Origin: Gammaproteobacteria bacterium
GTDB lineage: Bacteria > Pseudomonadota > Gammaproteobacteria > Eutrophobiales > Eutrophobiaceae
Direction of reading: 5' to 3'
Assembly (NCBI GenBank): GCA_963582285.1
Contig: CAUZRI010000001.1
Location: forward strand, 1 to 27,319
Length of the DNA: 27,319 nucleotides
The stretch's first letter is position 1. Each line of letters begins with the position of its first letter. The notes under the pieces were generated by a model. That model worked only from the letters and a program-made list of their open reading frames with translations. It did no database searches and had not been told where the DNA came from. A program made the position numbers and the translations under genes. Below, piece by piece: positions 1,291-19,585 of the stretch.

Positions 1291-2490
1291 TTAACAGACC
1301 CGTGCAACAACACCCTTGAATTCTTCATCAGTGACTAAACGTCCATTGCTAGTACCGATGTCCTTCACCTCTGCCAGCACGGCACCCCGTTTGTCCTCAG
1401 GGATATTCAGTCCAAGTTCCTTACCTTTCAACTCAATACTAACCATGCCACTTTTCTTACCCAGTACGATTTTGCGATCTGCGGCAACTACCTCACATGA
1501 ATATGGTTCGATAGATTCCGGAACGTGAAACTGGCTTACTACACCGCCACTTTCCCGGGTGTAGAGAAACTCACCTACCACTGGTTTCCAACCGTCGACG
1601 GTATACTTCCCTGCCGTCTGCACCAGCTTTGAGACCTCACGTGACTTGGTGAGATCCAGCTCTACGGGAACATGGTATAAGCCTTGTAAGGCCAGGGCGA
1701 CTTCGCTTATATCTGCATTACCCGCACGCTCACCCATGCCATTGACAGTGCCCTGTATCCAGCTTGCACCACCGCGTACTGCGGCGATGGCAGAGGCAGT
1801 AGCCAAACCAAAATCGTTATGACCGTGCCAATGCACCGGGATGTCAGGACCTACCCAACTTTTTACTTCCCTGATCAATCCTTCCACGGTCTCTGGTGCA
1901 CAAACGCCGATGGTATCTACCATAGAGATTTCCTCTGCACCATGTTCTATGGCCGCGGCATAGACATCTTTCAAATAGCCTAAATCACTACGGGTAGAAT
2001 CCACCGCGAAAAAATTTATCTTTTTAATACCGGCATCCTTGGCGTACTTCACGGCATCCGTCACCTTTTGCATAACCTTTTCACGGGTAAATCCAAATGC
2101 CTTCATTTTTCTGTCGCTGGTGGTGATCTCAATTAATAAATATTCAGTGCCTAATTCCAGATGGGCATCAATATCTGCCTGTACGGCACGGGAAAAACCC
2201 CAAATTTCAGAGTCTAAACCTGCCTCAAGAATACGCTTTACTGCCCTGGTATCTTCGTCTGAGACACGAGGAAAACCAGATTCAATACGACCTACACCCA
2301 ACTCTGATAACTTGCACGCTATCTGAAACTTGTCTTCAGCTGAAAAACAAACCCCAACGGATTGTTCGCCATCCCTTAATGTCGTGTCATAGAAACGCAC
2401 CGGTTTTGTTCGATCAAAACCCTTCTGCACTTCATCGGTTTCATTCAGTTCGGTGGTCCAAAATTTCTCTCTTGGTAGATCGGTAATCAT
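1291..2490 (-). CDS. DRE-TIM metallolyase of the homocitrate synthase/isopropylmalate synthase (HMGL-like) family, no C-terminal regulatory domain; activity uncertain
   Basis: DTTLRDGEQ, HGHNDFGLATA, GTVNGMGERAGNA and VLGKKSG motifs; 399 aa; GGAG Shine-Dalgarno ~9 nt upstream of the ATG. Confidence 0.85.
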   Translation of the reverse strand: MITDLPREKFWTTELNETDEVQKGFDRTKPVRFYDTTLRDGEQSVGVCFSAEDKFQIACKLSELGVGRIESGFPRVSDEDTRAVKRILEAGLDSEIWGFSRAVQADIDAHLELGTEYLLIEITTSDRKMKAFGFTREKVMQKVTDAVKYAKDAGIKKINFFAVDSTRSDLGYLKDVYAAAIEHGAEEISMVDTIGVCAPETVEGLIREVKSWVGPDIPVHWHGHNDFGLATASAIAAVRGGASWIQGTVNGMGERAGNADISEVALALQGLYHVPVELDLTKSREVSKLVQTAGKYTVDGWKPVVGEFLYTRESGGVVSQFHVPESIEPYSCEVVAADRKIVLGKKSGMVSIELKGKELGLNIPEDKRGAVLAEVKDIGTSNGRLVTDEEFKGVVARVC

Positions 2491-2793
2491 AAAGCCTGTT
2501 CTCCATGTTTCATCTTAATTGTAATGCTGGAAGATCTGATATTACGTAACAAAACGACATTGGATTATTTGTAATTGACGGAATACCCTGAATTATCTTG
2601 CTACTGCATCCCGGACACCTATCAGGTGTTTGAAAACAAGATAGCGCGAAGCAACAATATAAACGAAGGTGGTTGCCGGGACAAGTGTGAAACAGGGATA
2701 ACACATTATTATCCCTCTAAATCGCCACACAACTTAACCTAGCTATTTGTAAGACTAGATTCACGTAAAAAGTTATAAGCAACTAAAAATTGA

Positions 2794-2821
2794 TAAAAAA
2801 AACGGGGCGTTAGCCCCGTTT
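2794..2821 (-). terminator. Rho-independent terminator after the TonB receptor fragment
   Basis: Minus strand AAACGGGGC-TAAC-GCCCCGTTT followed by a T-run, ~30 nt past the stop codon at 2851. Confidence 0.85.
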
Positions 2822-2850: not shown

Positions 2851-3972
2851 TTATTGGAAGTTATAGTTAAACTTTATGCCATAGGACGTGAAGGAGTTGT
2901 CCTGAAGATTTGCAGTAATAAACCCATCGGGTATTACCTGAAATTTCGGATGGTAGGCCGGACGGGCTTGCAGGATATTACGCACATAACCGGCTAGCTG
3001 CCAGCTGCCGTCCTGAGGGCCAAAACCTGCCGAAACATTTATATCACCACCTCTGTCGAAAAAGGTGGTAACAGAGGGATTACTACTCCTGCAGGTCCGA
3101 TAGTCATCGGTGATATGTGCCTTGACATTGACAAAGGCCATATACGAGTTCATGACTGGCATCTCGTAGTTTCCACCTAATACAAATTTGAACGAGGGTG
3201 AATCCTGCGGGGTTGTACCTTGACGGGAGACAGTTTGCGCTGCTCCTACGGATGTCGTCCCTGCAGAAAATTCTTCTGTATCTGCCATTCGACAGCCGCC
3301 AGTAAGAAAAAATTCCGGGGGAATATCCGCCAGGGGCGTCAGGGAAGCTACAATCCCCGGTTCTAATCTACCCAAAAATTGGTTAGCGCCGGCTATCTCT
3401 TCCGCCCTAAAGCTCGAGGGATTCGCAAGAATATTAAGAGAAGCGGCGGCCTGCTCGTTTGCGGAACAACCACTACCATCAAAATCCAGGAATTCCCCGT
3501 CCAGCAGCGATCCGGCAAGGTTCAGGGTCAGTCTCTCTGTCGCCGCGTAATCAAAACTGAATTCAACACCATCGACCCGTTGTTTGCCTGCATTGAGGCT
3601 GACCGAGTTCTGATCTTGTGGATTAAAAAGAGGTGCCGCACCCACTGTTTGCAGATCCTTAAAGTCGTTCCTGAAGATATCTATATCATAACGAAGACGT
3701 CTCTCCATAAGCGTGCCCTTGGCTCCCACTTCAAAGGCCGTGACAAATTCTGGCGCAAAAGCGAGTTCTTCGAAGGTGGTGGGAAGCCCACCCTGCCCGG
3801 TATCGGTAACAGGCCCCTTGAACGCCGTGACGTATTTACCGCAAAAGGTATGATTACCCTCCATGGAGTTCGGCGTAAAACTAAGAACAATCTGTTTGTC
3901 AAAATTATCTGCCTTTTGCGTTTCGATAAACGGTGCGGGCAGATACCAGCGAAAGTCATTTGCTGAATACAT
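2851..3972 (-). pseudogene. C-terminal fragment (~373 aa) of a TonB-dependent receptor; no signal peptide, TonB box or plug
   Basis: Aligns by eye to the last third of the receptor at 15093-17978 (DTGQ, EFVTAFEVGAKGTL, NAGKQRVDGVE, SYGIKFNYNFQ). An in-frame TAG sits immediately before the ATG, the upstream DNA is AT-rich non-coding, and there is no clear Shine-Dalgarno. Confidence 0.7.
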
Positions 3973-4210: not shown

Positions 4211-6118
4211 TTATACTTTTCGGGAACGTAGATCCGCCACAGAAAACTTCTGATACTGTGTGAGGCCTGCACCGGTACCCCAGGAGGCTGTACGGGCATC
4301 GATCATATACGGACGACCGTCTTTCAAGGTTCGGAATCCACGTTGAATCGCTGGTCGTACCTGATCACTGTTAGAGACGACCTCACCGGGAATATTATAA
4401 ACCGAGGCCAATTTGGCGAAGTCCATATCTGGATCACCCAGGAAGGAAACGTAATCACGATTCGCCTCGCCAGCAGCACCAGCGCCCATGATACGGAATC
4501 GCGTTGCCTCATAGCTGCGATTGTTCAATATTATTGTCAAGACCGGGACATCGTAACGCGACATGGACCAGAGTGAGTCAGACTGGCCAAACATAAATCC
4601 ACCATCTCCCTGTAAAGAAACCACCTGTCTGTCAGGCAGCGCCAATTTAGTTCCTACCGAGGCACCAACTCCCCAACCCAGGGCCATACCCGTGGTACGA
4701 CCTATTTTTAATCTACCCTCTGGACTAAAATTAATATGACTTACGGTCCTCTCTCCCCGACCCAGTTCTTCAACTACCACGGCATCGGGATCCATCAGTT
4801 CATCCAGTTCGTAGAGTAACTTTTGCCAGGGCAAAGGATCTCCCTTACTTAGACGCCCGGCTTCCCGGGTCCCTGCATGCTTGCCAGCGGAGTATGTTGA
4901 TATTTTTAGACGACGTTCCGCGGTTCGCCTTTTAAGTTGCGCAGGACTTGCCATACTTTTTATAGCTTCCACCAGGTCTTTTGCGATTAAATCAATATCT
5001 CCAAGCAAACCAACCGCGGTAGGGGCATTGCGACCAATTTTCTCCGGATCTACACTGGCATGGATTAACGGGATCCTGCGATTTTTCATAAAGGTCTCCA
5101 TGCCTTGCGTAGCCCGGGTACCAATACTGATACAGCAATCAATATCATGGGGATAAAACTGCATATAGCTTGGCAGGTTGAGCAAATAACCAATATGCAG
5201 CGGATGATAATTGGGAAAATCACAATGAAAGCTTCTGGAATGTTGCGCCACCGGTATCGCCAACAACTCTGCCAGCTCAACAACTGAAGGAATTGCATTA
5301 CATTGACTAATCTCAAAACCCACTTCCATCAATGGTGAATTTGATTCAAGTAGAAATTTTGCCGCCCTTTCAATCTCAACGGGGTCGGGTCTCAATTCCA
5401 TTGAAACATTTAGCGCCTCTTTGGAATAAACACTTGCTGTCACATCAGATGCATACAGGTGATTCCGTGGAACACGAATATGAGTAGGTCCTCCTGGCAT
5501 AATATTGGACAGTTTGTACGCCCTGCGTGTCCATTCAGCCATTCTATTTGATTCATGGACTACCCATTGCCATTTGGTATAAGGCTTGACCGCTTCTGTC
5601 CAATCATCGAGATCCTCATGGGTATCCGTGCCTTCATTTGTGGAACTGGCATGATCACTGATTACTACCAAGGGTGAGCGGTCCTTCATGGCGTTATACA
5701 TACTGGAACTTGCATTGGGTAAACCAACCCTGCTAAACATGCAAAATCCTGTTTTTCCTGATGCCTTAGCATAACCATCGGCGATAGATACTACGTGACC
5801 TTCATGGGTCGCCTGGATCAGGGTCAGTTTCCCGGGGCGTTCAACCAACGCATTACATATCGGTCCTAATCCGGAACCATTTGCAATAAATAAATATTTT
5901 GCATCCGTCTCGAGAATTTGCTCAAGCATTACTTCCGCACCGGTACCGGTTACTGAACGTGTGTAACCTTCGGGCATTTCAGACCCTGGAATAAAAGGTT
6001 CAACTGCTGCCAAAGCCGACCTTGCGGCAGTCACGCCATAACTGGCTGCTGCCATCCCTGCCAAAAAACCACGTCGTGATATTTTGGCGTTAATTAGTTC
6101 TTTTACTAGCTCGCGCAT
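4211..6118 (-). CDS. Thiamine-diphosphate-dependent enzyme (benzoylformate decarboxylase/acetolactate synthase-like fold) with a predicted Tat signal
   Basis: ATHEGHVVSIADGYA (catalytic Glu motif) and GDGGFMF...IILNNRSY (GDG-x-NN ThDP/Mg motif). N-terminus SRRGFL plus a hydrophobic stretch and ALA-A cleavage site. GGGGGA ribosome-binding site. Confidence 0.9.
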   Translation of the reverse strand: MRELVKELINAKISRRGFLAGMAAASYGVTAARSALAAVEPFIPGSEMPEGYTRSVTGTGAEVMLEQILETDAKYLFIANGSGLGPICNALVERPGKLTLIQATHEGHVVSIADGYAKASGKTGFCMFSRVGLPNASSSMYNAMKDRSPLVVISDHASSTNEGTDTHEDLDDWTEAVKPYTKWQWVVHESNRMAEWTRRAYKLSNIMPGGPTHIRVPRNHLYASDVTASVYSKEALNVSMELRPDPVEIERAAKFLLESNSPLMEVGFEISQCNAIPSVVELAELLAIPVAQHSRSFHCDFPNYHPLHIGYLLNLPSYMQFYPHDIDCCISIGTRATQGMETFMKNRRIPLIHASVDPEKIGRNAPTAVGLLGDIDLIAKDLVEAIKSMASPAQLKRRTAERRLKISTYSAGKHAGTREAGRLSKGDPLPWQKLLYELDELMDPDAVVVEELGRGERTVSHINFSPEGRLKIGRTTGMALGWGVGASVGTKLALPDRQVVSLQGDGGFMFGQSDSLWSMSRYDVPVLTIILNNRSYEATRFRIMGAGAAGEANRDYVSFLGDPDMDFAKLASVYNIPGEVVSNSDQVRPAIQRGFRTLKDGRPYMIDARTASWGTGAGLTQYQKFSVADLRSRKV

Positions 6119-6187
6119 GTCATCCCCCAGAATATTGTTATTGAACTACCGCTTGAGATAAGATTATTTCGGTTAAATTATTAAGCA

Positions 6188-6478
6188 TTAATTCTCGACT
6201 GCCATATTATTTACCAAGTATTTGCGTACGGTCTCAAGATCTTTTACATCAACTACAGCACCTCTTGCCAACATATCATAAAGCGCATTTTCCCATTGAC
6301 TGGCATTAAGACTAACCCTGGTTAAATGACCTAGTCCATGACATTGACTACAAGCGACAAATACAATATCTCTGCCCTCTCCTTCAGGAAACGCTTGTTG
6401 TGCATTTAATGAAAAAGGAAGAAATAGAGCGAACACTAAATATCCCGCAGTAACGTAAACCTTGACCTTATTTTTCAT
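6188..6478 (-). CDS. Small monohaem c-type cytochrome (SorB/SorU-like class I), secreted
   Basis: Signal peptide ending SLNA-Q; FPEGEG...CSQCH haem motif; W..ALYDM..RGA putative distal Met; YL..N tail. Ribosome-binding site nearly identical to that of the ThDP gene. Confidence 0.9.
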   Translation of the reverse strand: MKNKVKVYVTAGYLVFALFLPFSLNAQQAFPEGEGRDIVFVACSQCHGLGHLTRVSLNASQWENALYDMLARGAVVDVKDLETVRKYLVNNMAVEN

Positions 6479-6697
6479 TCATCCCCCAAAACAATGTATT
6501 TAACAGGTTCTTAGTGTATGCCTGAGAATAAATATCGCAATATATTTATTCATTGTTCCTTATCAGAATCTGATTTAATTTATTCTCGCATATTTAATTG
6601 TATATCTACTTGAAATTAGAGAGCTATTTATGCTTGTGTATTAAAGTATTTTTCTTATACTGGCTACTTATTATTCATAATTACAAACGGAAGATCT

Positions 6698-7588: not shown

Positions 7589-8055
7589 ATCTTGTTAATC
7601 CTGTCTATTTTATATTTTTCTTTTGGTTACTAGCTTTGCCAGTTTGTCGGATTATTAAAGCCCCGTCATTCTGGAAAGTCCATAGGACTTGTCCGGAATC
7701 CATGCTGATTTGAACAACGGCTGGATTCCCGCCTTCGCGGGAATGACGTACGAGAAATCTCCACCCCACACATATTCAATACATCCTGTTTATCTTGTAA
7801 ATCCTGTCTATTTTATATTTTTCTTTTGGATACTAGCTTTGCCAGTTTGGCGGATAATTAATGCCCCGTCATTCCAGAAAGTCCGTAGGACTTGTCCGTA
7901 ATCCACACTGGTTTGAACAACGGCTGGATTCCCGCCTGCGCGGGAATGACGTATGAGGGATATCCTCACCCCTCACATATTCAATACATCTTGTTAATAC
8001 TGTTAATCCTGTCTATTAATTGATTGGATACTGGTATTTACCCAGAGGCACAAGG
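7589..8055. repeat. ~204-bp tandem duplication of a composite REP-doublet unit (2 full copies plus the start of a third)
   Basis: AATCCTGTCTA anchors at 7597, 7800 and 8005 (periods 203 and 205). Each unit holds CCGTCATTC..AAGTCC-NNA-GGACTT..AATCCA, the linker TTTGAACAACGG, and TGGATTCCCGCCT(T/G)CGCGGGAATGACG. Confidence 0.9.
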
Positions 8056-8100
8056 CGCTAGAAAAACGAGATGAAGCTACTATTACTGTTTCGTTATATA

Positions 8101-9708
8101 TCAATGGCCAGTGGCGATCGCTACCAGTTTTACTAGATCAACAGGGGCTTCGTTACCGCGCCATACAATATGCAGGTCGGGCCGCAATAAGAACAATTCA
8201 TAACCCTCATAAACCTCTACTGCGTGGGGATCATCCAGGGATAAGGTTTCAAATGGTGCGCCTTGTTTTTCAAACTCTGAAATCAAGGCTGATAGATCTT
8301 CCCGTCCATTTTCAAATCTGAGTAAAATATACCCCTTACCTAGATGGTCATGTATCGCGGTTCCATCCTTGAGCCAGACATGTGGAAGTCGAAAACCTGG
8401 CCATGTGGTGGGGATATAATCAGGATTATCTGCATCAGGTCCTTCACCATCCGCCGGCCAGATTAACGGTGAATTAATATAACGATAACCGGCCTCTATA
8501 CCAAGGATCTCATTGGTTTTTCGTTGCTCTGTATTAGCAATCTCGGCAACATTGGCACGGATCTCTGCACCTTCTGGGGTATTGTCACGGATTTCAGGAC
8601 GCCAAGCAGAGCGCCATTTCCGCCGACCGGAATTTGCCCTGCCCGATGCCACAACATTTCTTATGCCAATCTGACGGCGTTCTGTCTCATAAGAGGTCAA
8701 CAGATTTTCTCCTCCCCAACCTGCGAGCATTCCCTGTAATTTCCAGGCGAGATCAATTACATCGCCTGCACCAGTATTCATTCCCAGGCCACCGGTAGGG
8801 ATGACTAGATGTGCAGCATCACCAGCTATTAAGACTCGACTCTCACTATATCTATCTGCTACCAATAATTTTTGGGTCCACTTACCGATGTACAGGGTTT
8901 CATATTCGATCGGCATACCCACTAACTTTTCAAATAGTCCAGGCATTTCAGATTCGTCCTCTACTACGGCATGCAGTGTAAAATGTTTGGTATCATCCTG
9001 GACGATGATAAAACCCGCCTGGTCATCACAAACATGGTAATGTCGGCCCTTACCGATAGGAATTCGTTCATACAGATCATCACACCTGAACAACGCCTGG
9101 TGCAAAGACAACATATCCCCTTCACCTGAAAACTTTATTCCCAGCTGTTTTCTCACTGGACTTGCTGCCCCGTCACAACCCACAAGATAATCACCTCTTA
9201 TGGTCTCTTCGGATCCATCAGCGCCTTTCACATAGGCAACCACTTGATCCCCATTGTCTTCAAAACGAATAAATTCACTACCAAACCGTACATCAATAAA
9301 TTCATTACGTTCCGCAATACGCTTCAACAACGGTTCGAGGGTATATTGGGAAATAAGCTGATAAGGTTCGAGTGTGCGAGTACCATCATTGTGAGCAGCA
9401 ATATCTTCCTTACAATCCTTTACTGAACCATAAGGCAATCGCAAGATAGGTTCATCCACCAGACTGGTTACCACAAAAACATCCATTGGGCATTCTGCAG
9501 GGAGACCCGCTGCACGGATTTCATCCACTATGCCAAGTCGTCGGTAAATCTCCATAGTCCTGGCATTACAACGCTCCATCTTTGGCAGGCCTGAAGGTGC
9601 ATCATTGCGTTCAAGTAAGATACAACGTACACCGAGGTGACCCAAAGCAATAGAAAGTGTAAGACCTACAGGTCCCGCACCGACAATTATTACTTGTGTA
9701 TCTGCCAT
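8101..9708 (-). CDS. FAD-dependent aromatic hydroxylase (group A flavoprotein monooxygenase, PheA/TfdB/RdmE-like)
   Basis: IVGAGPVG Rossmann motif, LVGCDGA DG motif, LIAGDAAH and GGLGMNTG GD motif, and a C-terminal thioredoxin-like domain (PGFRLPHVWL...RPDLHIVWRG). Confidence 0.93.
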   Translation of the reverse strand: MADTQVIIVGAGPVGLTLSIALGHLGVRCILLERNDAPSGLPKMERCNARTMEIYRRLGIVDEIRAAGLPAECPMDVFVVTSLVDEPILRLPYGSVKDCKEDIAAHNDGTRTLEPYQLISQYTLEPLLKRIAERNEFIDVRFGSEFIRFEDNGDQVVAYVKGADGSEETIRGDYLVGCDGAASPVRKQLGIKFSGEGDMLSLHQALFRCDDLYERIPIGKGRHYHVCDDQAGFIIVQDDTKHFTLHAVVEDESEMPGLFEKLVGMPIEYETLYIGKWTQKLLVADRYSESRVLIAGDAAHLVIPTGGLGMNTGAGDVIDLAWKLQGMLAGWGGENLLTSYETERRQIGIRNVVASGRANSGRRKWRSAWRPEIRDNTPEGAEIRANVAEIANTEQRKTNEILGIEAGYRYINSPLIWPADGEGPDADNPDYIPTTWPGFRLPHVWLKDGTAIHDHLGKGYILLRFENGREDLSALISEFEKQGAPFETLSLDDPHAVEVYEGYELFLLRPDLHIVWRGNEAPVDLVKLVAIATGH

Positions 9709-15092: not shown

Positions 15093-17978
15093 TTATCTGA
15101 ACTTGTAGTTAAATCTCAGGCCGTAGGTCATGAAGTTACCCGGAGATACCCTTACCGAGGCATATCCATTGGGTATGGCATCAAACTCCGGGTTGTAGGA
15201 CTCCTTGGCCTCGAAGATGTTATTAGCATAGCCAGTCAAGGACCATACACCACCAGCATCCCTGATACCGGTAGAGATATTCATATCACCGTGGGTGTCA
15301 AAACCGACGACCTGACTAAAACTGTCACGGGCGACGATTAAACCATCGGAATAGTAACTCTTGGTATTAAAAAAGAGCTGATACTGATCCATAAACGGTA
15401 GGGAATAGCGAGTGGAAAGTACGAATTTCCAGTCTGGGGTACGGGGGGCTTGTGCGCCCGAACGATCCAGTGTTTCATAGCCCGGACTTTCTTTGTCTAT
15501 ATCACAGGGAATGAGATCCATGCCTAGGCCCAATACGGTATTAAACTTCTCTTCAAAGTTACAGGTTGATCCCTGAAAGTCCATCACCACGCCATCCATA
15601 ATGGCACCGCTCATATTGAGTTCTAGATTGTCCGAGACTGCCGCCGTCAGGCCAAACTCAATCCCTTCCACCCGTTGCTTACCAGCGTTGGTGGCAACAG
15701 AGGTTGAATCCAGATTAGAGATTGGCGCGAGACCAGACAATTGCAGGTCAGTAAAATCAGTACGGAAGATGGTAATATCGTAGCGGCCGCGGCCATCCCA
15801 TAATGTTCCCTTGGAACCAAATTCCCAGGTCTGGGCTGTTTCTGCCTCGAACTTTAACTCATCCACATTGGCAGGCAGGGTGGATTGTCCGGTATCAAAG
15901 CCAGCGGCCTTGGAGGCCTTGGCCCAGCGTGCGAAAAGGGAATGGTTACCCGCTCTGTAACGCAGGGTGACCTGCGGGTCAAAGCCGGGATCGGTAAAAG
16001 TGTCAACGATTGGAGCGCCGTCATCAGTTTCCTTGCCGAGACGGTACGCGTAATCCGGGGCGGACAGGCCGACCGGTCTAGCCACGGCTCCCATCCAGTT
16101 CGGCGGCACCCTTCTTTTATCCGATGATTTGACTTTGCCATCATAGCCCAGAGCCCAGAGATTGGTCATATCCACAGGACCATCAACAAAAATCCTGGCG
16201 TCATCTGCAGAAACTCGATATGCGTTAGAATGCATGGTACTGGGGTCGTCGGTATCCACCGACGCGTCACAGGCAGTGATATGCGCCAGAGTCAGATCAG
16301 CGCCCGCGGCACCGGCCCTAATACCTTTATCAATGGTATCCAGGAACCGCACGTCACAAGGTGCAATATCAAATACATATTGGGCCCCAAAGCCGGTGAT
16401 ATATACATCTTTTTTGACCGATTGGTAACGGCCACCCACGTCTAAGGAGGCCCTATCATCAAGGAAATTTAAGGTCACTGTCCCAAAGGCATTGGACCAT
16501 GACGCATCTTCCCAACCATAATTAAGTCGCTGGGCGCGGCGCACAGTGGCATTAAGACTGGAGGATATGAAATCTTTGCCGTTCTCCTGGTAGGAGCCGC
16601 CTACCATCCATTCAATCGTGCCGCCGGTGGGTGAGGTCACACGGATTTCCGTGCTCCACTGGTCAAACTCCTCCTGGCGGGCCTGGTTATTAAAGGAGAA
16701 AGGTGCACCGTTATTATCACGGATATTATTTCGCACAAAGGCGTTAAAGCCGCTGGTAGAATTTATCTCGATACCATTATCAAAGTTATAAACAAGCTCT
16801 AACACCGAGCCCCAGCTATCAGTATAGTCCTTACCACCGTGACCACCCATGGCCAAACCAGTCTGTGGTCCACTTCTCGTCATATCTTTATCTTGTGACA
16901 AAAAGTTTTCTGCAACCTCACGTTGGTCAATATTACCGATATCATGGTCATTAGCGCGGGTACGGATGTTCAATGGCGGGGTAAGGTATACGCTGCCGTT
17001 CTCGTCGCCGTTGGTCCAACCAACGTTGTCCCCAAAACAGTCATCAGTAATAGGGTTAGCAAATGGCACATCAAAACCTTCGCCTGCAAATGGGGTTGCA
17101 TCGGCATTAGTGTAGACTGACGTTGAGGAACCTATGTTATTTTTGGTGTCACTTCGAGGCTTGCTCCCGATACCGCCTCGGCCCCAGATTGGGTCACCTG
17201 GGGTAATACAACCCGTCAGAGCCTCAGAACCATTACGCAGCCGAGATTTAAACATACTTGAGGTTGCCTGGAAATTATCATTTGGGGTCCATTGCAGGAC
17301 GACCCGACCACCAAGGTGGTCAAATCTTGGATACTTGTTCCCCGTCACGGCATCTTTCAAGAATCCCTCGGATTCCTCACGGATACCGGCAACCCGGATG
17401 CCCCAGGTATCGTTAATGGGACCACCCACACCGAAACTGAGTTCAGTGGAACTATTACTACCGTAGGTGGCATTGACGTCACCTTCCCAGGAGGCCGTAG
17501 GCCGTTTGGACTGGATATTGAAGGCGCCGGCGGTGGCATTCTGACCAAAGAAGACCGGTTGTGGGCCCTTCAATACCTCAATGCGTTCCACATCCAAAAA
17601 TGCAGTCTGGATCTGTGACTGCCTGCCGTAGTGGATATTGTCTACAAACATAGGTACGGCCTGTTCCAGGGTCAGGGAATTTCCAATGGTGCCAAAACCC
17701 CGCACCGCGATTCGTTGCTCCTGAATACCACTCTGGATATAAATAGAGGGGGAGAAGTAAGACAGGTCTTCCATGTTACGAAAACCTTCTTCATTTAGTT
17801 GATCACCTGAGAAGGTCTCAATAGAAATCGGCACCTCTTGTAGTGACTGTTCCCGACGTTGGGCGGTCACCACGATCTCTTCTAATACCTGTGCGGTTAC
17901 ATTAAATGGAATGAATGACGCTACTGCCATCACAAATGCAGTGCCGCCGATAGTCAATGATTGAAAGATCTTATTCAT
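15093..17978 (-). CDS. TonB-dependent outer-membrane receptor
   Basis: Signal peptide ending VTA-Q; TonB-box region LEEIVVTAQRREQSLQEVPISI; plug motif DVERIEVLKGPQPVFFGQNATAGA; C-terminal YGLRFNYKFR. The ATG at 17978 is preferred over the TTG at 17987 because of spacing to AGGGGG. Confidence 0.95.
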   Translation of the reverse strand: MNKIFQSLTIGGTAFVMAVASFIPFNVTAQVLEEIVVTAQRREQSLQEVPISIETFSGDQLNEEGFRNMEDLSYFSPSIYIQSGIQEQRIAVRGFGTIGNSLTLEQAVPMFVDNIHYGRQSQIQTAFLDVERIEVLKGPQPVFFGQNATAGAFNIQSKRPTASWEGDVNATYGSNSSTELSFGVGGPINDTWGIRVAGIREESEGFLKDAVTGNKYPRFDHLGGRVVLQWTPNDNFQATSSMFKSRLRNGSEALTGCITPGDPIWGRGGIGSKPRSDTKNNIGSSTSVYTNADATPFAGEGFDVPFANPITDDCFGDNVGWTNGDENGSVYLTPPLNIRTRANDHDIGNIDQREVAENFLSQDKDMTRSGPQTGLAMGGHGGKDYTDSWGSVLELVYNFDNGIEINSTSGFNAFVRNNIRDNNGAPFSFNNQARQEEFDQWSTEIRVTSPTGGTIEWMVGGSYQENGKDFISSSLNATVRRAQRLNYGWEDASWSNAFGTVTLNFLDDRASLDVGGRYQSVKKDVYITGFGAQYVFDIAPCDVRFLDTIDKGIRAGAAGADLTLAHITACDASVDTDDPSTMHSNAYRVSADDARIFVDGPVDMTNLWALGYDGKVKSSDKRRVPPNWMGAVARPVGLSAPDYAYRLGKETDDGAPIVDTFTDPGFDPQVTLRYRAGNHSLFARWAKASKAAGFDTGQSTLPANVDELKFEAETAQTWEFGSKGTLWDGRGRYDITIFRTDFTDLQLSGLAPISNLDSTSVATNAGKQRVEGIEFGLTAAVSDNLELNMSGAIMDGVVMDFQGSTCNFEEKFNTVLGLGMDLIPCDIDKESPGYETLDRSGAQAPRTPDWKFVLSTRYSLPFMDQYQLFFNTKSYYSDGLIVARDSFSQVVGFDTHGDMNISTGIRDAGGVWSLTGYANNIFEAKESYNPEFDAIPNGYASVRVSPGNFMTYGLRFNYKFR

Positions 17979-18340
17979 ATAAATCAAACCCCCTATAGGT
18001 CAAATCTGGTTTTAAAAAAGTTTAATGATGCAAATGTAATGGTTTTAACTGTAAATATCTAGTTTTATTACCTAGTTGTCTAAACTTTAGTGTCATAATA
18101 CAACTTGTCATAAAATAATAACAAATAATTTCCTAAAATCAAGGCAGCACAAAAATTATTTCAATTAGCTGATATATCATAATATGAGGAATTAAAGACA
18201 ATTAACCTAGCACCTGATAAGTAACCGTTAGTTATATTTTACGTAAGTCTTGGTTGTAGGGCAATATTGTTGCATATTTACAAAATTTATATGAAATACA
18301 GATGTATCAGTTAGATAAACGATAGTGGACGCTTACTTAT

Positions 18341-18375
18341 AAACGCAAACGGCCCGGGATTACCCGGGCCGCGTT
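18341..18375 (-). terminator. Probable terminator after the secreted cupin
   Basis: 9-bp GC stem CGGCCCGGG-TAAT-CCCGGGCCG followed by TTTGCGTTT on the minus strand, ~30 nt past the stop at 18401. Confidence 0.7.
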
Positions 18376-18400
18376 AATTTTAATACTTTACGAATTAAGC

Positions 18401-19585
18401 TTACATACCAGCAGCCGCTTTTCGTTTTGCAACCTCTGCCTTAAATTCCGCCTCCATTTCTGGCATATCAACCTCCAGTTGATCGTTGAAACGCAAACCC
18501 AGCGATACCACGATGGGGGGTGCATTAATGGCCAGGTAACGCGCCGAATTCTCTGGATTTGGATCGGGATTCATATGTTGATGGTACCAGTATATGGGTG
18601 GCACAAAAATGGTGCCCTCGTTCCAGTCCACACGGATACGGTCTTCGTATCGACCTTCAGGCCAGGTTAAGGAATAACCATTACCGGAAGTGAGAAGGAT
18701 AAAGGCATCACTGCTGTGCCGGTGTGCTTTCTTATAAAGCCCCCCAGGCATTTCCGATACATGCATATCAATGATGGAGTTACCGGACATCTTCCAGTGC
18801 ATATTAGAGGTGCCCTTGCCGCGATGGTCATAGGAGTCCAATTCAAACTCCAGGGCATCGGGGACAAAGTTGGTAACCGTGTCATTGTCTCCGGTATGCT
18901 CACTATACGTGCCGTAATCCTCTTCTGCGTCATAACGGTCGGTAAAGGCAAAATCATTCTTATAGATGAAATCCTCATTGTTCATGGCATTCATTAAAAA
19001 TGGAAAGCTTGATACAGCCACGATTCGAACAACTTCGTCACTATCGTTGAAGATTTGATAACGAACATTGTTAGGTATCGAATACAGTGCCCGATGACCG
19101 TAATCGATGCGCTGTGGGCGCCTGCCTTCCTGTTGGAGAATTATGTGGCCGGGGCCTCCGAAGAAGTACAAGCCCGCTTCGTAAACATGGCGCTGGGGTT
19201 TTATCTCGCCTTTCGGTGGGATCTCCAGTATCCAGCCATCTGTGATCTGGTAGTCAGCCATCTTGATGTACATTCCGTCTACACCAAACCGGTCCCAAGG
19301 TGCCAGAGGATAAGTCCGGGCATCCTGAATCACCACACCTTCAAAAGTAGGCATGGAATCCTTGTTAGCGGCAAACCAGTGTTCATAAGGGGTGTCCGTG
19401 GGTCTTACCCGAAACATTGTGGGTCCCACCTGCTCCGTACGGGACTCTTGTCCCTTATATGACTCGATAGCGGCTCTATTCCGGGCGGACTCTTCACTCG
19501 TATCACCTGTCCCCTGCGCATTCACACCCGTGCCTATGCAGAAGGCAAATGCGAGTGTGGACAAAATTAACATTCTTATATTCAT
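18401..19585 (-). CDS. Bicupin with a Sec signal peptide (periplasmic paralogue of 9814-10929)
   Basis: N-terminus MNIRMLILSTLAFAFCIGTGVNA-Q; shared motifs TPY..W, PQRH.YE, YKKAHRH, GYSLTW, PPIYWYHQHMN, ARYLA; GGAG Shine-Dalgarno. Confidence 0.87.
   Translation of the reverse strand: MNIRMLILSTLAFAFCIGTGVNAQGTGDTSEESARNRAAIESYKGQESRTEQVGPTMFRVRPTDTPYEHWFAANKDSMPTFEGVVIQDARTYPLAPWDRFGVDGMYIKMADYQITDGWILEIPPKGEIKPQRHVYEAGLYFFGGPGHIILQQEGRRPQRIDYGHRALYSIPNNVRYQIFNDSDEVVRIVAVSSFPFLMNAMNNEDFIYKNDFAFTDRYDAEEDYGTYSEHTGDNDTVTNFVPDALEFELDSYDHRGKGTSNMHWKMSGNSIIDMHVSEMPGGLYKKAHRHSSDAFILLTSGNGYSLTWPEGRYEDRIRVDWNEGTIFVPPIYWYHQHMNPDPNPENSARYLAINAPPIVVSLGLRFNDQLEVDMPEMEAEFKAEVAKRKAAAGM

Follow-up and report, generated by a model that had tools for sequence, protein, structure and literature searches.

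A LeuA-like protein that lacks the acetyl-CoA condensation residues and probably belongs to a non-condensing branch of the DRE-TIM superfamily

The window analysed here is a 27,319-nucleotide stretch of a gammaproteobacterial genome (assembly GCA_963582285.1, contig CAUZRI010000001.1, positions 1 to 27,319 of the forward strand). One of its genes, an intact open reading frame (ORF) of 399 codons on the reverse strand, encodes P0001, a DRE-TIM/HMGL-like (LeuA-family) protein of 399 residues (Table 1). In P0001, the residues that bind the metal and the 2-oxoacid (R39, D40, T193, H222 and H224) and the two-domain fold are intact, but the His/Glu/Tyr device that enolises acetyl-coenzyme A (acetyl-CoA) is gone. 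To judge by conservation, this device is replaced by a different set of residues, which consists of an N-terminal cap with N16 and of R68, E121, Y34, H220 and Q246. P0001 is probably a functional cytoplasmic DRE-TIM metalloenzyme from the homocitrate/isopropylmalate-synthase branch that no longer performs the acetyl-CoA Claisen condensation, and it probably represents a non-condensing branch of the superfamily.

All residues that mark a DRE-TIM metallolyase (R39, D40, E42, H222 and H224) are present in P0001. Residues 31–290 match the Pfam family HMGL-like (PF00682, 8.5e-69, 232.3 bits against a gathering cut-off of 29), and HCS_D2, the post-barrel domain of homocitrate synthase, gives a sub-threshold match (21.3 vs 27). 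The N-terminus is hydrophilic, and no signal peptide was found in the protein. The AlphaFold2 model, made with a 66-sequence alignment, has a pLDDT (predicted local distance difference test) of 96.7 and a pTM (predicted template-modelling score) of 0.94. In a Foldseek search, this model is most similar to homocitrate synthase (PDB id: 6ktq, template-modelling (TM) score 0.88 over 387 columns) and to methylthioalkylmalate synthase (MAMS; PDB id: 6e1j, TM 0.85), with DmpG-type aldolases and HMG-CoA lyase far lower (TM ~0.6); the superposition on 6ktq includes both domains, with the helical subdomain that follows the barrel. Nonsynonymous divergence (dN) from orthologues is 0.07–0.21 and synonymous sites are saturated (dS), values by which the gene is under strong purifying selection and by which a pseudogene was rejected.

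An earlier sequence-only reading of the window had noted LRDGEQ, DT.G, HGH, Val163 and the segment TRESGGVVSQFHVPESIEPY in this ORF and had taken the metal and 2-oxoacid motifs to be intact. All of these were confirmed in place. P0001 was aligned with HMMER to the solved synthases 6ktq, 6e1j and 3rmj, and the numbering of 6e1j (BjMAMS) was used for comparison. The chain index of 6e1j is the same as the published numbering (R89, D90 and Q93 fall on LRDGEQ), so the HMMER alignment can be read directly against BjMAMS mutagenesis. Kept are R39, D40 and Q43 (R89, D90 and Q93 of BjMAMS, of which Q93 lies near the CoA thiol), T193 (T257), and H222 and H224 (H288 and H290). E227, which hydrogen-bonds the Tyr, is replaced by V163. 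The general base H388 is lost, with a gap or a Val in its place; we take H379 in MtIPMS and H309' in fungal homocitrate synthase to be the equivalents of this His. Y399, which stacks on the His, is replaced by Pro or Ile, depending on gap placement (Pro324 in one alignment, otherwise Ile327).

When profiles of 19 family members and of 27 canonical synthases are aligned to each other (hhalign, probability 100), the Glu is paired with V163, the Tyr with I327 and the first His of HESG with R312, and the catalytic His lies in a one-residue deletion between G316 and V317. The HMMER, MAFFT and profile–profile alignments are concordant on the loss of the triad. None of them restores the His, the Glu or the Tyr, an outcome that would have refuted the earlier reading. 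The initial claim that Glu, His and Tyr had become Val, Val and Ile thus stands for the Glu (Val163) and the Tyr (Ile327), but since the local alignment leaves a one-residue ambiguity, a deletion describes the fate of the GIH His better than a replacement by Val does. Val, Val and Ile occupy the three triad columns in 73 of 73 family members (66–97% identical; taken from 80 loci), none of which has the catalytic His. The canonical set of 52 sequences (50 representatives and two paralogues from the window's own genome) has His and Tyr throughout (52/52 each) and Glu in 48 cases, with Gln in the other 4. Three more histidines found only in canonical synthases are also replaced, H128 by Lys (SD.H), H312 by Arg (HESG) and H346 by Lys (GKHSG).

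In MAMS, activity is abolished in the mutants E227A/D, H388A/Q/D/E and Y399S and severely reduced in E227Q, H388N and Y399F; the Glu-Tyr-His arrangement is also conserved in isopropylmalate synthase (PMC11532901). Among NCBIfam models, those of archaeal-type isopropylmalate, citramalate and homocitrate synthases rank first for P0001, and every curated cut-off is missed widely (LEU1_arch, 342.6 bits vs 484.75; nifV, 286.7 vs 462.9; LysS, 252.6 vs 413.55; leuA_bact, 223 vs 598.7). The window genome encodes a separate LeuA of 511 residues and a paralogue of 516 residues, both with the full triad. Therefore, the P0001 gene is not the leucine-pathway enzyme, and its assignment as the genome's own LeuA was rejected. 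The triad is absent in all alignments, the equivalent MAMS mutants are dead, three further histidines are lost, the curated synthase cut-offs are missed and a normal LeuA is present elsewhere, all of which agrees with the first proposal that P0001 is not a NifV/LeuA/AksA-type synthase. Within the canonical synthases, one clade (P0170, P0190, P0202, P0204 and P0261; ~500 residues) has Met in place of the Glu while keeping the His and a Phe or Tyr, and another clade has Gln in place of the Glu. Thus, the Glu is not strictly required in natural His-bearing relatives.

Homologues with 66–97% identity to P0001 are abundant in metagenome-assembled genomes of Gamma- and Alphaproteobacteria, many of them from sponges, corals and lucinid clams, and a sample of 19 sequences from the two classes contains about 130 invariant columns. 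When 1.8 billion cluster representatives were searched exhaustively with HMMER, the window's family formed a cluster of its own, and the nearest neighbouring representatives showed at most 50% identity to it. There are about 120 full-length neighbours, 48 with Glu/His/Tyr and about 60 with none of the three and hydrophobic residues at these sites. Residue counts in 50 such non-canonical (His-less) representatives, set against canonical ones, give a gained signature. Asn16 is found in 42 of the 50 and an aromatic residue at position 11 in 38. Arg68 is found in 37, and Arg is not among the five commonest canonical residues at this position; Glu121 is found in 33, where 30 of 52 canonical sequences have Phe. 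Position 220 is Glu in 38 of the 50 and mostly Ser or Ala in canonical synthases, and P0001 has His there. Position 34 is His or Tyr in the His-less group (Tyr34 in P0001), and position 246 is His in this group and Gln in the window's family. The residues of LRDGEQ are nearly invariant in both groups. Leu119 aligns with Val182, a residue of the MAMS substrate pocket (PMC8468904). Glu121 is two residues further along the same barrel strand and therefore should face the pocket.

In a FastTree phylogeny of 129 sequences, all 50 canonical representatives (50/50) fall into one well-supported clade, and P0001 lies outside it, among His-less lineages. In an IQ-TREE phylogeny of 71 sequences, the presence of the His needs only two changes. 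A constraint to a single split gives a likelier tree than the free search did, and the approximately unbiased test does not reject it (p-AU 0.79). The phylogenies thus fit one divergence from the canonical synthases and, being unrooted, allow for either a loss or a gain of the His. His-less proteins are found in Gamma- and Alphaproteobacteria, Acidimicrobiia, Anaerolineae, Nitrososphaerota and other groups. In public databases, they bear unspecific or mistaken names ("LeuA family protein", "methanogen homocitrate synthase", "homoaconitate hydratase"). The names of ten distant His-less representatives are all generic, as are those of the LeuA/AksA clusters, the only ones that the protein atlas returned. 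Searches of the literature, of solved structures and of protein clusters yielded no member of the His-less clade that has been characterised or structurally solved.

In relatives at ~66–75% identity, the LeuA-like gene is part of a recurrent block, which runs in the order of an AraC regulator, a Mer-like F420-type LLM oxidoreductase, an FAH-family enzyme, an M20 ArgE/DapE-type deacylase, often FbiC/CofGH (FO synthase), a PuuE-like deacetylase, the LeuA-like gene, two PanE-type reductases and an M24 creatinase-like hydrolase. P0001 is 66–75% identical to the LeuA-like proteins of this operon, and every diagnostic residue is common to both. Of the 80 loci compared, 51 have the PuuE-like gene and 46 the FAH gene within 8 kb of the LeuA-like gene, and in alphaproteobacterial loci the FAH gene lies next to it in divergent orientation. 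In the bacterial family of the window (Candidatus Eutrophobiaceae), 44 of 126 genomes have the LeuA-like gene, and in 31 of these 44 the PuuE-like gene lies beside it. A search of the literature on the operon of these relatives returned nothing relevant.

Several loci depart from this arrangement. In a Micropepsaceae locus (L027), two LeuA-like genes, at 5371-6657 (-) and 8001-9173 (+), flank the same FAH-family gene; both products are His-less, but one is of the Val/Val/Ile type and the other, of the Tyr/Gly/Met type, belongs to another subfamily, a sign that further subfamilies of the clade may also be paired with FAH. In a sponge-associated genome (G004, the source of locus L006), ~65 kb separate the LeuA-like gene from the genes for FAH and FbiC (C1:2173750-2178706 and C1:2243466-2244414). 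The latter two contain in-frame stops (two TGA and two TAA in one, one TGA and one TAA in the other), and the first PanE gene is split in two frames, so this genome displays either operon decay or errors of long-read assembly. In an alphaproteobacterial locus (L025:7170-9176, plus strand), the longest ORF over the LeuA-like gene has 668 codons, with ~270 residues before the HMGL domain that have no Pfam match; this may be an artefact of the longest-ORF rule or a real N-terminal fusion. In a sister genus (g19), several genomes carry a true DmpG-type 4-hydroxy-2-oxovalerate aldolase gene ~15–30 kb from the LeuA-like operon (e.g. G041:C74:1192-2373 and 17592-18587; G044:C84; G056:C1), which hints at a larger catabolic island. 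Because this genus has both genes, a role of the LeuA-like protein as a substitute for a missing DmpG-type aldolase was rejected.

The window's genus, which is probably Candidatus Eutrophobius (the genus that contains Candidatus Eutrophobius brisbanensis), keeps the gene without the operon. The assignment to this genus draws on locus L001, whose genome is of the same genus. The window genome is 60% complete, and several other genomes of the genus are 94–100% complete. All nine genomes of the genus contain the LeuA-like gene, at 80–96% identity and with an internal stop in one copy. An orthologue of the PuuE-like partner is found in none of these nine genomes. In the five genomes searched in detail, there are no orthologues of FbiC, FAH, M20, M24, LLM or PanE, only paralogues with at most 42% identity, and a DmpG-type gene is found in none of eight. 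Thus, in the genomes searched, one genus retains the LeuA-like enzyme alone, without the seven tested operon partners, and its substrate must be available without the operon. The gene has unrelated neighbours in two other species of the genus, with DUF1592/DUF1552, ankyrin-repeat and IorAB-like molybdoenzyme genes around it. In two loci (L004:3920-4405 and L005:9238-9711), a conserved ORF of 157–161 codons with an N-terminal hydrophobic segment and no Pfam match begins 35–43 bp after the LeuA-like gene, and it is followed by IorAB-like molybdoenzyme subunits with a twin-arginine translocation (Tat) signal. This small ORF was rejected as an enzyme partner, as its product resembles a small membrane or secreted protein.

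In the window, the LeuA-like gene is predicted to form its own terminator-bounded transcription unit (Table 1). The promoter-like matches in its 5' region are no more numerous than in shuffled sequence. The downstream asparaginase-like gene is convergent on it. The upstream receptor remnant corresponds to the C-terminal third of a TonB-dependent receptor of 1001 residues (it aligns to residues 638–1001 with 57% identity); the full receptor is intact at the same position in one related locus (L003) and wholly lost in another (L001). Beyond the remnant lies the gene of a thiamine diphosphate (ThDP) enzyme with a small partner ORF. An operon with this ThDP enzyme was rejected on account of the terminator, the 309-bp gap and the receptor remnant in between. 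The suggestion that P0001 acts on a 2-oxoacid from the neighbouring pathway was not supported, because the gene is an isolated unit, separated by a strong terminator and the TonB-receptor remnant, and because the relatives' operon was not found in the searched genomes of the genus.

Table 1. Features of the LeuA-like gene, its product and its upstream region, in window positions
Feature	Position	Strand	Basis
Gene for HMGL-like/LeuA-family protein P0001, with the TIM barrel and C-terminal helical subdomain of homocitrate synthase	1291..2490	-	ORF, Pfam, AlphaFold, Foldseek
LRDGEQ, residues 38-43: Arg39 and Asp40 (metal, 2-oxoacid carbonyl) and Gln43, all kept	2362..2379	-	Alignment to 6e1j R89/D90/Q93
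DTIG, residues 192-195: Thr193, 2-oxoacid carboxylate ligand, kept	1906..1917	-	Alignment to 6e1j D256/T257; D192 invariant
HWHGHND, residues 220-226: metal ligands His222 and His224 kept; His220 family-specific	1813..1833	-	Alignment to 6e1j H288/H290
Val163 at the synthase Glu site (E227 in MAMS, E155 in fungal homocitrate synthase)	2002..2004	-	HMMER, hhalign; Val in 73/73 members
T311-Y330, remodelled catalytic segment TRESGGVVSQFHVPESIEPY	1501..1560	-	hhalign, HMMER, column counts
Ile327 at the stacking-Tyr site	1510-1512	-	hhalign, column counts
W11-N16, N-terminal extension that canonical synthases lack	2443..2460	-	Column counts; short helices at residues 14-22 in the model
Glu121, barrel strand 4, candidate catalytic or substrate-binding residue	2128..2130	-	Column counts, pocket mapping
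Arg68, barrel strand 2, conserved gain of the His-less group (putative role)	2287..2289	-	Column counts
5' region of the gene, 309 bp: GGAG ribosome-binding site ~10 nt before the ATG, weak promoter-like sites	2491..2799	-	
Intrinsic terminator of the upstream TonB-receptor remnant: 9-bp stem with 6 G-C pairs, T run	2800..2821	-	
373-residue ORF, receptor remnant with a TonB-dependent-receptor barrel match	2851-3972	-	

What reaction such a protein could catalyse is suggested by the parts that are kept. We give about an even chance to the reading in which P0001 is a CoA-independent, metal-dependent C–C lyase (an aldolase or a decarboxylase) that acts on a 2-oxoacid. The 2-oxo-carboxylate would be chelated to the metal and polarised by Arg39, and it could then serve as an electron sink for the breakage of a C3–C4 bond. 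This may be a retro-aldol cleavage in which a 4-hydroxy-2-oxoacid yields pyruvate (or another 2-oxoacid) and an aldehyde or ketone, or else a beta-decarboxylation. E121, H220 and Y34 are candidates for acid/base residues, and R68 may join them as an acid/base or binding group. In related bacteria, the FAH-fold partner may supply the substrate, by analogy with the hydratases that serve DmpG/MhpE-type aldolases, and in the window's genus the enzyme would act alone on an operon-independent substrate. A broader proposal, which we hold tentatively and rate somewhat below an even chance, is that the His-less LeuA-like proteins constitute a single DRE-TIM class, large, ancient and so far unrecognised, with its own catalytic constellation (the N-terminal cap with Asn16, Arg68, Glu121 and positions 34, 220 and 246) that performs CoA-independent C–C chemistry on 2-oxoacids, with the window's genus showing a role independent of the F420-linked operon.

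Several observations weigh against a C–C lyase. The defining residues of the known DRE-TIM aldolases are also absent from P0001, with Q43 at the site of the DmpG-type His. Gln43, which is near the CoA thiol in MAMS, and the C-terminal subdomain that forms the CoA site of the synthases are retained, so CoA or another thioester could still bind. The parallel with hydratase–aldolase pairs is an analogy only, and a characterised member of the His-less clade was found neither in the literature nor among cluster names. The same retained parts could serve an enzyme that still carries out a Claisen-type condensation but uses another general base (E121, H220 or H322) or another nucleophile (a different acyl-CoA, an acyl carrier protein thioester (acyl-ACP) or an enolisable keto acid). 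The synthase-type fold is fully kept, the C-terminal subdomain included (TM 0.88 to 6ktq and 0.85 to CoA-bound MAMS 6e1j), as are Gln43, Arg39 and the GERAGN and GK.SG segments, and in nature some His-bearing relatives do with a Gln or Met at the Glu site. However, the catalytic His is not substituted but deleted, and the Tyr and Glu sites are hydrophobic in 73 of 73 members; the H388A/Q/D/E and Y399S mutants of MAMS are dead, the three further canonical histidines are gone, and H322 is not conserved beyond the narrow family. A condensing enzyme is unlikely on this balance.

It is similarly improbable that P0001 breaks no C–C bond at all and instead tautomerises, isomerises, hydrates or dehydrates a metal-bound 2-oxo- or 2-hydroxy-acid, or that it is a ligand-binding subunit or sensor. 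Such a role would fit a protein in which the ligand residues are kept and none of the catalytic residues known from characterised DRE-TIM subgroups is present, and the two adjoining genes for PanE-type 2-oxoacid reductases in relatives would fit a simple delivery of 2-oxoacids. The newly conserved polar residues of the barrel (R68, E121 and positions 34, 220 and 246), however, resemble an active site rather than a pocket alone, and the window's genus keeps the gene without its operon partners. To our knowledge, all known DRE-TIM enzymes make or break C–C bonds. A decaying, non-functional synthase copy is suggested by the missing catalytic residues and by the position of the gene in the window's genus, where it is stranded off its usual operon beside a truncated TonB-receptor gene. 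This explanation is effectively refuted, and we consider it extremely improbable, by the intact frame, the dN of 0.07–0.21 against saturated synonymous change, the retention of the gene in nine of nine genomes of the genus at 80–96% identity (one copy has an internal stop), the ~130 columns that are invariant across classes and the very confident fold prediction.

Thousands of genes of this kind are annotated as synthases of isopropylmalate, homocitrate or citramalate, as "methanogen homocitrate synthase" and even as "homoaconitate hydratase". Should their products prove unable to condense acetyl-CoA, the leucine, lysine and cofactor pathways reconstructed for uncultured bacteria and archaea contain an error at this step. 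The clade would also be a natural experiment in the re-tooling of a Claisen scaffold, in which six residues are lost and about six are gained while the fold is unchanged, and a clear and testable case of neofunctionalisation with systematic misannotation. The genus without the operon narrows the search for the substrate to compounds available without the FAH, M20, PuuE-like and F420-type enzymes.

Of the enzymes with known function, homocitrate synthase is closest to P0001. The enzyme of Sulfolobus acidocaldarius (6ktq; other structures are Thermus 2ztj and fungal Lys4 3ivs) is both the best sequence match (5e-55) and the best fold match (32% identity), with the same TIM barrel and C-terminal helical subdomains and the same Arg-Asp, Thr and His-x-His site for the metal and the 2-oxoacid. 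Unlike homocitrate synthase, P0001 lacks the Glu, the catalytic His, the Tyr and the histidines that begin HESG and lie within GKHSG, carries an additional conserved N-terminal segment as well as the new barrel residues R68, E121 and H220, and misses the NCBIfam cut-offs for homocitrate synthases. The MAMS and isopropylmalate synthase (IPMS) structures (BjMAMS 6e1j from Brassica, Neisseria IPMS 3rmj) show 33–34% identity to P0001, which has equivalents of R89, D90, Q93, T257, H288 and H290, but Val, a deletion and Ile in place of E227, H388 and Y399, and does not have the regulatory domain of LeuA.

HMG-CoA lyase and the carboxyltransferase subgroups (OadA/PC/5S) with their pyruvate carboxylase and oxaloacetate decarboxylase models, judged by score, are distant from P0001 (39.8 bits vs 246 for the former and 32–46 bits vs 400–1100 for the latter two). 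By its residues and scores, P0001 is not a member of the DmpG-type aldolase subgroup either. It has Gln43 at the site of the aldolases' catalytic His, four residues after the Arg (LRDGxH), where the aldolases of the same bacterial family read LRDGMHA, and it scores 74.9 bits against a cut-off of 286 with TIGR03217, at a TM of ~0.6; no acylating aldehyde dehydrogenase (DmpF-type) partner is found among the scanned ORFs of the window. DmpG/BphI/MhpE-type 4-hydroxy-2-oxoacid aldolases belong, however, to the same superfamily and have the same metal site. Hydratases and aldolases form pairs in meta-cleavage pathways, as in MhpD–MhpE and XylJ–XylK, and the proposed retro-aldol chemistry of P0001, together with the FAH pairing in its relatives, would resemble such modules.

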